Part shown: one piece after another, positions 7,593 through 8,993 of the stretch
How positions within the stretch are numbered: position 1 is the first letter of the stretch
Layout of the letters: each line of letters begins with the position of its first letter
From: a virus
Direction: 5' to 3' (one strand)
DNA: 12,254 bases
Virus genome (UHGV): UHGV-1620146
The notes under the pieces: model-generated
Told to the model about the DNA's origin: nothing
The model's database searches: none
The model's input: only the letters and a program-made list of their open reading frames with translations
Made by a program: the position numbers and the translations under genes

Positions 7593-8811
7593 TGGCGTTA
7601 TCCTTCTGCTTACCGGCTTTACTGCCATCGGAGGGTTTCGTGGTCATGTTCATCGGTGTGAGATAGACATCACCACCGGGACGCGGATTCATATCTTCCA
7701 GGTCGCGGCAGTCATTGGGAGAGTAAATTCCCCAGTTGATCCCGGTGGCGTAGGCTTCAAAACGGGACTTCATATCCCCGCGCAGTAACGCCCCGGCGTT
7801 AAATTTGGCGTAATAAACGCCCTGCTTACTTTTTCGTACCAGTCCGGTGTTGATCCGCTGTTCGATGCGGGTCAGATACGGCACCAGTGAATAGTTGATA
7901 AATCCCAGCCCCAGCTCTTCGATATTGTTGAAGGTGGCGCGATCGGTGTTCTGCACCATGTGCAACGGCACCCGGAACAGACGACAGATTTCTTCAAGCT
8001 GAAACTTGCGGGTTTCCAGGAACTGGCTGTCCTCGGCGTTCAGCGCCATCGACTTCCAGTCCAGCCCCATCTCAAGGATCATCGGGCGGTGAGCATTGCC
8101 AAGCCCGGTGTGACGCTCCTCAAAATCTTTCTTCAGGCGCTCATAAGCCTGATCTGACAGCGTCTGCTCTGTACGCAACACCCCCGACGTCACCGCGCCA
8201 TTGCTGAACAGTCTGGCCCCGTGCTCTTCGGTCGCAGCTGCCAGCGATATTGCCTCGCGGGCATAGGCGATGGGATTCAGCCCCACCAGTCCGTCCAGCG
8301 TCAGCGTGCGCACATGCCAGATATCCTCCTGGCTCAGTACATCCGTGGAGCCATCCGGGAATGTGACCTGATAGATCGGCTCCCAGCTACTGTTAAGCTT
8401 CGGTACCACACAGCCGGGATCGACGGGCAGCAGTTCAGCCACTTCGCCAAATGCTTTCACTTTGTAGGCGTAAAAGTTTCCCCGCAGGCACAGACAGGTG
8501 ACCACCAGCTCCCAGAACTCCTGCGGCGTCATATAGCCATTGGGATGCGTGGAGATCAGTTTATGCAGACGTTCGCCGGTGGCTCTCTGCTTCAGGCTGC
8601 CGTTCAGGTGATACAGATTGCAGGGCAACATCCCGACCGACTCTGCCAGCACTCTGACGCAGGAAAAAACCGCCGTCAGTCGCATGGCCCGCTGACTGCT
8701 GATCTGCTTTCCGGTATAGGTGTCGTAGGACAGCCCGATAGCCTCCGCCAGCTCTGCTGGCGTGGTCACCGGTGCGTCACTTTTTCGTTGAAATAATCCC
8801 GAAAAGAACAC
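7570..8811 (-). CDS. Portal protein, HK97 family
   Basis: 413-aa ORF. The GTG start at 8811 has GGAGG 6 nt upstream and overlaps the TAG of the preceding small ORF. Portal-like core (...RLTAVFSCVRVLAESVGMLP...). Position between terminase and protease. Confidence 0.85.
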   Translation of the reverse strand: MFFSGLFQRKSDAPVTTPAELAEAIGLSYDTYTGKQISSQRAMRLTAVFSCVRVLAESVGMLPCNLYHLNGSLKQRATGERLHKLISTHPNGYMTPQEFWELVVTCLCLRGNFYAYKVKAFGEVAELLPVDPGCVVPKLNSSWEPIYQVTFPDGSTDVLSQEDIWHVRTLTLDGLVGLNPIAYAREAISLAAATEEHGARLFSNGAVTSGVLRTEQTLSDQAYERLKKDFEERHTGLGNAHRPMILEMGLDWKSMALNAEDSQFLETRKFQLEEICRLFRVPLHMVQNTDRATFNNIEELGLGFINYSLVPYLTRIEQRINTGLVRKSKQGVYYAKFNAGALLRGDMKSRFEAYATGINWGIYSPNDCRDLEDMNPRPGGDVYLTPMNMTTKPSDGSKAGKQKDNANADETTS

Positions 8812-8993
8812 TATTTACCTCCACCAACAGACAGCTGTGTACGGTCGAGATATCGCGCCACCAGCCACGACCAGAACAGGCACAACGCCCCGGCAACAAC
8901 AAACCCCGCCGGGGGATAAATCATCCAGGCACCATACACCAGCAAAAGCGCCCCCAGCACGCCCACCAGAGGCGCGAGAATCAGCATGATCAT
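8811..8993 (-). CDS. Small predicted membrane protein (60 aa, two hydrophobic helices) between large terminase and portal
   Basis: ATG at 8993 with GAGG 5 nt upstream. Translation [60 protein letters not shown] has two hydrophobic stretches. Its stop overlaps the portal start (TAGTG). Confidence 0.6.

Follow-up and report, generated by a model that had tools for sequence, protein, structure and literature searches.

A predicted membrane hairpin protein of the YmfR family is encoded immediately upstream of HK97-type portal genes

RESULTS

A small ORF between the genes for terminase and portal is an allele of ymfR

The subject of this work is an open reading frame (ORF) of 60 amino acids in a 12,254-nucleotide (nt) stretch of the virus genome UHGV-1620146, referred to here as the window, where it lies between the gene for the large terminase subunit (TerL) and the gene for an HK97-type portal protein. 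Every gene in this part of the window is located on the minus strand, and the coordinates of the ORF, its signals, and its neighbors are collected in Table 1. An earlier note, made from the letters of the window alone, had described the ORF as strongly hydrophobic, preceded by its own Shine-Dalgarno (SD) sequence, similar to its neighbors in GC content, and ending in a TAG codon that overlaps the GTG start codon of the portal gene. This description was confirmed in every detail, while the interpretation attached to it was partly supported, as discussed below. Both neighbors were identified by Pfam profiles, a GAGG sequence precedes the ATG codon of the ORF, and the stop and start codons form the sequence TAGTG, in which one G is common to both. 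The TerL stop codon (TAA, positions 9007 to 9005) leaves 11 nt before the ATG codon, and the GC content of the ORF (0.585, or 0.67 at third codon positions [GC3]) compares with values of 0.54 to 0.56 (GC3 of 0.65 to 0.68) in the TerL and portal genes. After the portal gene, Pfam recognized an S78 prohead protease and a capsid protein with the HK97 fold; a small terminase subunit (TerS) of the Terminase_4 family was also identified.

As judged by sequence similarity, the ORF is an allele of an already catalogued gene, ymfR (phrog_502, IPR020297), an identity that had gone unrecognized in the earlier note. Its product (6.4 kDa) is equal in length to YmfR from the e14 prophage of Escherichia coli K-12 (b1150) and identical to it at 57 of 60 positions (95%), with A19V and L24M among the changes in the window allele. 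The position is also the same, since the 183-nt ymfR gene of strain MG1655, named 'IPR020297 domain-containing protein YmfR' in RefSeq, is flanked by a terminase pseudogene, aaaE, and by beeE, the remnant of a portal gene. A megablast search with the 183-nt sequence found the gene in 1,365 of 5,426 complete E. coli genomes, or about a quarter, under the PGAP name 'protein YmfR'. The protein matched phrog_502 ('membrane protein') over 55 of 58 profile positions with an E value of 3.9e-27, and PHROGs places this family in the category 'moron, auxiliary metabolic gene and host takeover'. No significant family was found for it in Pfam or NCBIfam, and no homologous chain was found in the PDB, which includes solved phage particles. 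The window region shares 98% identity with Shigella phage SfI, 97 to 98% with SfII, SfIV, and a number of E. coli phages, 88% with Salmonella phage ST64B, and 79% with phiP27. The labels given to the small ORF in related phages are 'membrane protein', 'putative integral membrane protein', Sb3, and L37, and the literature searched yielded no functional study of ymfR or of membrane proteins encoded between terminase and portal genes.

A word-indexed search returned 173 near relatives, which were enterobacterial without exception. An exhaustive profile search of 1.84 billion representatives extended the family to 349 clusters at an E value of ≤1e-3 (26 at ≤1e-10), nearly all of them 45 to 80 amino acids long, and 47 of 47 diverse members matched phrog_502. 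The family reaches through the Alpha- and Gammaproteobacteria and into metagenome-assembled genomes (MAGs) of Ruminococcaceae; hosts include Shinella, Reyranella, Sulfitobacter, Rhizomicrobium, Lysobacterales, Serratia, and Mangrovibacter in addition to the Ruminococcaceae MAGs, and a member is encoded by Azospirillum phage Cd, which was the sole match when the family consensus was compared with phage records by tblastn. The members share the motif G..G..L.(S/A)YGAW(L)(I/V)YPPAG(F/Y)IV.G. In an alignment of 47 sequences, no variation was seen at G14, W23, or G35 and hardly any at G21, P28, or G30, making the turn between the two hydrophobic segments the best-conserved part of the protein. Four of the profile search matches (P0149, P0164, P0168, and P0220; 102 to 122 amino acids) carry a tandem double hairpin in one ORF. 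TerL, YmfR, and portal sequence of the E. coli type was also seen in two records attributed to Gram-positive organisms, namely OR844959.1 ('Enterococcus phage Efm 3-10', 1,764 bp) and a MAG labeled 'Bacillota bacterium' (JAEWTL010000102, our locus L023), the latter encoding a YmfR identical to the K-12 protein; both are probably the result of contamination or mislabeling.

ymfR is under purifying selection as a protein

Variable sites among 36 distinct DNA alleles were distributed over the three codon positions as 25, 15, and 36, and the ratio of nonsynonymous to synonymous differences per site (pN/pS) was lowest in the annotated frame (0.37, versus 0.61 to 1.7 in the other five frames), which marks the plus-strand ORFs at positions 8772..9008 and 8837..8989 as shadows of the coding frame. 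Conservation in related phages and a coding signal in alignments, two checks proposed in the earlier note, thus both came out in favor of a gene: the conservation of the ORF across hundreds of clusters and its pN/pS ratio are more than chance would produce, and we have hardly any doubt that it is a real gene of the YmfR family. The corresponding ratio of substitution rates (dN/dS) was 0.25 to 0.41 in pairwise comparisons with ST64B, P27, phi467, and a Mangrovibacter prophage, whereas the values for TerL and portal were 0.03 to 0.08; the small ORF is therefore under purifying selection at the protein level that is more relaxed than in either neighbor. Within the protein, the C-terminal tail evolves much faster than the core (pN of 0.62 versus 0.18 in the comparison with Mangrovibacter). 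Among 43 distinct DNA versions, all four codons were in use at each of the Gly, Pro, Pro, Ala, and Gly residues of the motif. These loci had been chosen by that motif, so the informative part is the synonymous, third-position variation only. Since synonymous codons are used freely, a nucleotide-level constraint on YPPAG was ruled out, and the constraint lies on the protein and not on an RNA or DNA element. Two observations concern single residues: residue 54 (codon at 8832-8834, minus strand) is hypervariable, being L, M, S, Q, P, or T in alleles that are otherwise near identical, and the A19V and L24M changes of the window allele were unseen in the other 35 distinct alleles.

YmfR is predicted to form a membrane hairpin

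The earlier view of a strongly hydrophobic protein with two helices held up well. The grand average of hydropathy (GRAVY) of the small protein is 1.30, at the top of the range for the 109 reading frames of 50 or more amino acids that run from stop to stop in the window (maximum, 1.31; mean, -0.32; standard deviation, 0.52), and its Kyte-Doolittle profile (19-residue window) has two peaks, at 2.80 and 1.81, both above the usual threshold of 1.6 for a transmembrane (TM) segment. An AlphaFold2 model built from the 47-sequence alignment (mean pLDDT, 81) consists of a helix at residues 2 to 25, a turn at residues 26 to 28, and a second helix at residues 29 to 56. Charged residues are absent from positions 1 to 46. 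Across the family, Lys or Arg occurs in the interhelix loop of only 6% of members but in 93% of the N-terminal extensions of at least 8 amino acids and just past helix 2. By the positive-inside rule, an established guide to membrane topology, this distribution places both termini in the cytoplasm and the aromatic turn in the periplasm. Taken together, the model and the charge pattern make it highly probable that YmfR is an N-in/C-in hairpin, with nearly all of the protein buried in the inner membrane.

The ymfR stop codon is tied to the portal start codon

The arrangement at the downstream end of ymfR is shared by relatives. The portal start shares 1 nt with the stop codon of the small ORF (as TGATG, TAATG, or TAGTG) in 15 of 22 clusters, and it lies within -23 to +4 nt of that stop codon in 20 of 22. 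In the window, the RNA from position 8860 to 8780 is predicted to fold with a minimum free energy of -22.9 kcal/mol (z, -2.69; 2 of 200 shuffled sequences folded equally well). In this predicted fold, UAUCUC, which provides the Tyr-Leu codons of the ARYLDR sequence, pairs with the portal SD sequence, and the GUG start codon is also paired. The SD-masking pairing is kept in 14 to 16 of 16 relatives; covariation in these 16 gave it no support and was unable to confirm it, as the columns hardly vary. An ORF whose translation would open a hairpin that masks the next SD sequence is a classical coupling arrangement, and the anatomy of this junction strongly suggests that the small ORF and the portal gene are translationally coupled in the predicted manner.

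A simple consensus scan found no sigma70-like promoter on the minus strand within positions 8400 to 9500. In SfI, the gene order is Q antiterminator, S (an S21-type holin), R, Rz, HNH endonuclease, TerS, TerL, small ORF, and portal; with this layout and no promoter of its own found, ymfR would belong to the late transcript. All in all, late expression with translational coupling to the portal gene is very likely. Terminator-like hairpins followed by T runs are also present inside the ORF, at 8948-8975 and 8903-8917 (both minus strand), one of them within the YPPAGFVV codons. As an internal terminator, the hairpin at 8975-8948 was rejected: it folds no better than shuffled sequences (z, -1.0), so that the Gly, Pro, and Leu codons probably give rise to it incidentally.

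ymfR is linked to the portal gene rather than to TerL

A scan of species-representative genomes, together with two of IMG/VR, provided 188 loci in 23 clusters (at about 80% identity), whose neighboring genes were searched with hidden Markov models made from Pfam-confirmed portal and TerL proteins. An HK97-type portal gene starts at or beside the stop codon of the small ORF in 171 of the 173 loci with room for one, or 21 of 23 clusters. The exceptions are L117 and L009, and only in L117 was a downstream portal gene still found: there, an ORF for 266 amino acids with an HNH-like motif (3099..3899, plus strand) is inserted between the YmfR homologue and the portal. The gene directly upstream is TerL in 169 of 178 loci, and some alphaproteobacterial clusters have an extra gene between TerL and the small ORF, with the portal gene still abutting the latter. 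TerL is the usual but exchangeable neighbor on this side. Every relative with this portal type also has the small ORF.

Recombinant relatives separate the two sides. SfV and SKA5 match the window over TerL alone, and the homology stops about 80 nt inside the TerL 3' end; conversely, phi467 and 606R7 match it over the small ORF and portal alone, with the homology stopping 18 nt into TerL. Accordingly, the phi467 proteins are 39% (TerL), 87% (small protein), and 99% (portal) identical to those of the window, whereas in SfV the TerL is 97% and the portal only 27% identical. In the comparison with ST64B, the proportion of synonymous differences (pS) is 0.68 for TerL but 0.10 for the small ORF and 0.075 for the portal gene. 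Among 50 distinct family members, small-protein identity correlated more closely with portal identity (Spearman coefficient, 0.755) than with TerL identity (0.514). The small proteins of 56 pairs with portals >90% and TerLs <60% identical averaged 89% identity, versus 28% for the 11 reciprocal pairs. The SfV and window portals (27% identity) are about as diverged as their small proteins, from which it follows that the small gene is part of the portal segment and has diverged with it. By these comparisons of sequence and gene order, ymfR belongs genetically to the portal module and not to the terminase. No N-terminal portal motif was found that separates portals with the partner from those without it, MGxF..LF-type N termini being present in both groups.

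SfV carries an unannotated homologue, and HK97 carries none

The earlier note had proposed looking for a similar ORF in SfV- and HK97-like phages. SfV was found to have an unannotated ORF between orf2 (TerL) and orf3 (portal) at U82619.2 2289..2450 (plus strand; 2762..2923, minus strand, in our locus L001), which encodes a two-helix protein of 53 amino acids, MKSLIADVIGLAGFGLLTCGVYLQFGMAPALILSGALLLVGALAMARRGTRAA. This protein matches phrog_7105 (E value, 3e-22) and, more weakly, phrog_502 (E value, 5.7e-6), and hhalign gave a probability of 96.5% for its relationship to the YmfR family. It resembles YmfR in its two-helix hairpin and in its position between TerL and portal and is a remote homologue; it differs in being only about 27% identical, in lacking the YPPAG turn, and in having a partner portal that is also only 27% identical. 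The ATG codon of the SfV ORF overlaps the TerL stop codon (ATGA), and its end overlaps the portal start. As annotated, the SfV portal overlaps the small ORF by 58 nt; an alternative GTG codon 11 nt before the small-ORF stop would give the N terminus MLLDALFRSK, which aligns with those of other portals. In SfI (JX509734, record 2469..2595, corresponding to 9186..9312 in L004), the annotated portal start is 125 nt downstream of the small ORF, and a GTG start overlapping the small-ORF stop, as in ST64B, P27, and others, is likelier. In the literature searched we found no description of the pairing with the portal gene or of the hidden SfV homologue, both of which appear to be unreported, although the sequence itself is not new.

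In HK97, TerL and portal overlap directly and the small ORF is absent. Among 16 phages with PF04860-type portals, a spread sample from a tblastn search that matched 2,059 phage records, a small hydrophobic ORF precedes the portal gene in 3 and is ambiguous in 1 (Cellulophaga phage phi39:1 gp09), while 12 have none. Given this and its absence from HK97, portals of this type cannot in general require the small protein. The three positives are Vibrio phage K315 (L194, 841..1044), Mycobacterium phage Bobby (gp12, annotated 'membrane protein'; L195, 810..998), and Vibrio phage Va_91-7-154_p41 (L202, 469..675). Like YmfR, their products have 62 to 68 amino acids and two hydrophobic helices, and each ORF ends over the start of an HK97-type portal gene. 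They differ in scoring only about 5 to 13 bits against the YmfR profile. With such marginal scores they would be either remote homologues or convergent analogues, so that a wider superfamily or convergence may lie behind these Vibrio and Mycobacterium hairpins.

Other features of the window

In its longest reading, the prohead protease ORF (6942..7628, minus strand) overlaps the 3' end of the portal gene by 59 nt; related records have a shorter protease (651 nt) with an overlap of 23 nt. An HNH endonuclease ORF (11355..11804, minus strand) lies just upstream of TerS, the HNH-terminase neighborhood being a common arrangement in cos phages, and an Rz1/LysC-like ORF (11998..12138, minus strand) is found further upstream. 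A DUF2635 ORF of 56 amino acids (3523..3693, minus strand) adjoins the tail sheath gene.

Table 1. Coordinates of the ymfR locus in the window
Feature	Position	Strand	Basis or remark
YmfR-family ORF (60 amino acids, phrog_502)	8811..8993	minus	ATG start; TAG stop at 8813-8811 included; 57/60 identity to K-12 YmfR; phrog_502 E value 3.9e-27; dN/dS 0.25-0.41
SD sequence of the small ORF (GAGG)	8999..9002	minus	5 nt before the ATG at 8993; read from the sequence
Hydrophobic helix 1 (residues 2-25), Gly rich; G14 invariant, G21 nearly invariant	8919..8990	minus	AlphaFold2 helix 2-25; Kyte-Doolittle peak 2.80; alignment columns
YGAW-x-IYPPAGF (residues 20-30), tight interhelix turn with aromatic residues and Pro; most conserved motif	8904..8936	minus	Profile matches; predicted periplasmic side
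Hydrophobic helix 2 (residues 29-46); G35 invariant	8856..8909	minus	AlphaFold2 helix 29-56; Kyte-Doolittle peak 1.81
Short, basic, variable C-terminal tail (R47, D50, R51, K60), predicted cytoplasmic	8814..8855	minus	Final codons GGT GGA GGT AAA are also the portal ribosome-binding site
Portal SD sequence (GGAGG), inside the final Gly codons of the small ORF	8818..8822	minus	6 nt before the portal GTG; arrangement also in relatives
TAGTG stop/start overlap	8809..8813	minus	Small-ORF TAG at 8813-8811, portal GTG at 8811-8809; G common to both
Predicted RNA hairpin masking the portal SD and GUG start region	8806..8859	minus	UAUCUC (8852-8847) against the portal SD, GGCGC (8859-8855) against the GUG region; inferred
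HK97-type portal gene, downstream partner	7570..8811	minus	PF04860, E value 5.9e-108
TerL gene, usual but exchangeable upstream neighbor	9005..10738	minus	Pfam TerL_ATPase and TerL_nuclease

DISCUSSION

The explanation that we favor is that ymfR encodes a late inner-membrane hairpin protein that is coupled to the portal gene and is a member of the portal module; as a whole, we regard it as evenly balanced between right and wrong. According to this proposal, the small ORF would be part of the transcript of the late packaging and head operon, with translation beginning from its own SD sequence. As the portal start overlaps the stop codon of the ORF, whose final codons carry the portal SD sequence, ribosomes that finish the hairpin protein would be poised to start on the portal and would probably also open the SD-masking hairpin. 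The protein itself, having almost no soluble part, most plausibly acts in the membrane, where it might mark or organize an inner-membrane site at which the cotranslated portal is made or assembled into a prohead initiator. Such a role in membrane-associated portal or prohead assembly is a tentative proposal, less probable than not. Of the functions listed in the earlier note, membrane anchoring of packaging comes near to it. We prefer it as the only reading that explains why the gene persists at the portal start across phyla and through recombination. The role would be an accessory one, dispensable in lineages such as HK97, and analogous but not homologous to the membrane-associated step that involves gp40 of T4. 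In T4, assembly of the portal initiator (gp20) on the inner membrane involves gp40, a phage chaperone, and the host protein YidC (PMC4493910, PMC9958956), and gp40 and gp20 represent the only documented membrane portal assembly that we can cite as a precedent. The likeness lies in a phage-encoded accessory factor that is tied to initiation of the portal vertex at the membrane ('head vertex assembly chaperone' in NC_000866). However, gp40 is an acidic protein of 114 amino acids with no hydrophobic segment of TM length, its gene, unlike ymfR, is not adjacent to that of its portal (gene 20), and homology was rejected at an hhalign probability of 0.9%.

Several points weigh against this proposal. 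The precedent is distant, as T4 gp40 is neither homologous to YmfR nor a predicted TM protein. Tight linkage and codivergence with the portal gene could be explained by adjacency alone, and the SD-masking hairpin is without covariation support. HK97 lacks the gene, as do about 12 of the 16 sampled phages with PF04860 portals, and selection on it is relaxed compared with that on true structural genes. The predicted topology rests on hydropathy and the positive-inside rule, and if it is right, the most conserved part of the protein is on the periplasmic side. The C-terminal tail, which would face the portal, is short and the least conserved part, with residue 54 hypervariable among phages with near-identical portals. 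Direct contact with the portal therefore fits poorly.

Among the alternatives, a late membrane effector that is unrelated to assembly, and whose gene adjoins the portal gene for the timing of its expression only, is rather unlikely. Acting on the inner membrane or on a host membrane protein, it might exclude superinfecting DNA, modulate holin timing or the membrane potential, or inhibit a host function. This would suit a protein that is nearly wholly embedded in the membrane, exposes very little to the cytoplasm, and has a best-conserved motif that is predicted to be periplasmic, and it agrees with the dispensability of the gene in many HK97-type phages, the relaxed dN/dS ratio, and the PHROGs category. 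The architecture of two TM domains, an N-in/C-in topology, and a basic tail is similar to that of class II holins and of many small regulators in membranes. An effector, however, would have no apparent reason to keep its place beside the portal gene and the stop/start overlap across phyla and mosaic exchange. A known defense or exclusion protein was rejected, as no PADLOC-DB model matched either the window protein or its homologue in SfV at E values of up to 1, and exclusion in particular is disfavored by induction with the lytic genes and by the failure of the scan to detect a promoter, exclusion genes being usually expressed from the prophage. The holin-like peptide suggested in the earlier note shares two hydrophobic helices, the predicted topology, and the basic C-terminal tail with class II holins such as the S21 pinholin (the SfI S protein), but holins of this class belong to lysis cassettes, whereas the small ORF adjoins the portal gene, and SfI, the closest relative, has its own S-R-Rz cassette elsewhere, between Q and the HNH and TerS genes. 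Comparison with the S21-type holin of SfI by hhalign gave a probability of 1.5%, and no Pfam holin family matched, which leaves the holin-like reading unsupported. The moron-type function that had also been suggested found no support: no promoter was detected on the strand within positions 8400 to 9500, the TerL stop is 11 nt away and the portal gene overlaps by 1 nt, the internal terminator-like hairpin scores no better than shuffles, GC and GC3 are native, and the gene is not sporadic but occurs in every relative with this portal type, abutted by the portal in 171 of 173 loci. In K-12, moreover, ymfR is induced (log2 fold change, 4.5) alongside ymfL, ymfM, ymfQ, xisE, and other genes under an SOS-inducing drug (PMC10012262), and no phenotype has been reported for its deletion (PMC9145139); this coinduction with e14 genes and the lack of a reported phenotype bear on a moron indirectly and do not favor it.

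It is improbable that the ORF is merely a coupling leader whose translation sets the amount of portal while the peptide itself has little or no function. The conserved overlap, with the portal SD sequence or start inside or overlapping the end of the ORF, and the predicted masking hairpin are what a leader would show, the portal SD sequence would explain the C-terminal GG(K/E/D), and selection on the protein is relaxed. On the other hand, G..G..L.sYGAWlIYPPAGfIv.G has been kept as amino acids across distant phyla with its codons free to vary, the hydrophobic hairpin persists in SfV although the homologue there is just 27% identical, the coding frame clearly has the lowest pN/pS, and HK97 couples its portal directly to TerL without any leader. 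We attach still less probability to a virion-internal or ejection protein that is packaged with or near the portal and inserts into the inner membrane of the recipient cell for DNA entry. Other phages are known to have membrane-active proteins that exit the virion upon infection, and the gene resides in the head module and codiverges with the portal, but the protein has no soluble part and could get to the capsid only with the help of a chaperone, many phages whose heads are of the same type lack it, and neither a homologous chain in the PDB, solved phage particles included, nor a proteomic report in the literature searched was found. Finally, identity with the soluble head-completion (head-tail joining) protein gpW of lambda is effectively refuted. 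Its gene, W, occupies the same position between terL and portal, and three automatically annotated records (ON470603, ON470584, and PQ793804) label the small ORF 'head-tail joining protein W'. No Pfam match to gpW was obtained even at E values of up to 1, and the hydropathy and two TM-length helices of the small protein describe a hydrophobic hairpin and not a soluble protein; in SfI, the genes for head-tail adaptors are found downstream of that for the capsid. The label in these records is a positional mislabel.

Apart from its function, the analysis corrects annotations, namely the gpW labels, the missing SfV ORF, and the portal starts in SfV and SfI. It also describes a predicted membrane hairpin gene that is locked to the HK97-type portal gene across distant lineages and travels with it through mosaic recombination. 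We can suggest, with some reserve, that YmfR and phrog_7105, and possibly the Vibrio and Mycobacterium hairpins, are a widespread class of portal-coupled membrane factors by which the assembly of portal and prohead, or else head operon translation, is tethered or nucleated at the inner membrane. HK97-like head assembly is treated as purely cytoplasmic, and a conserved membrane partner of the portal would call this into question. If the suggestion is true, it would apply to a large fraction of HK97-type phages, and membrane-associated initiation of the head would be no peculiarity of T4.

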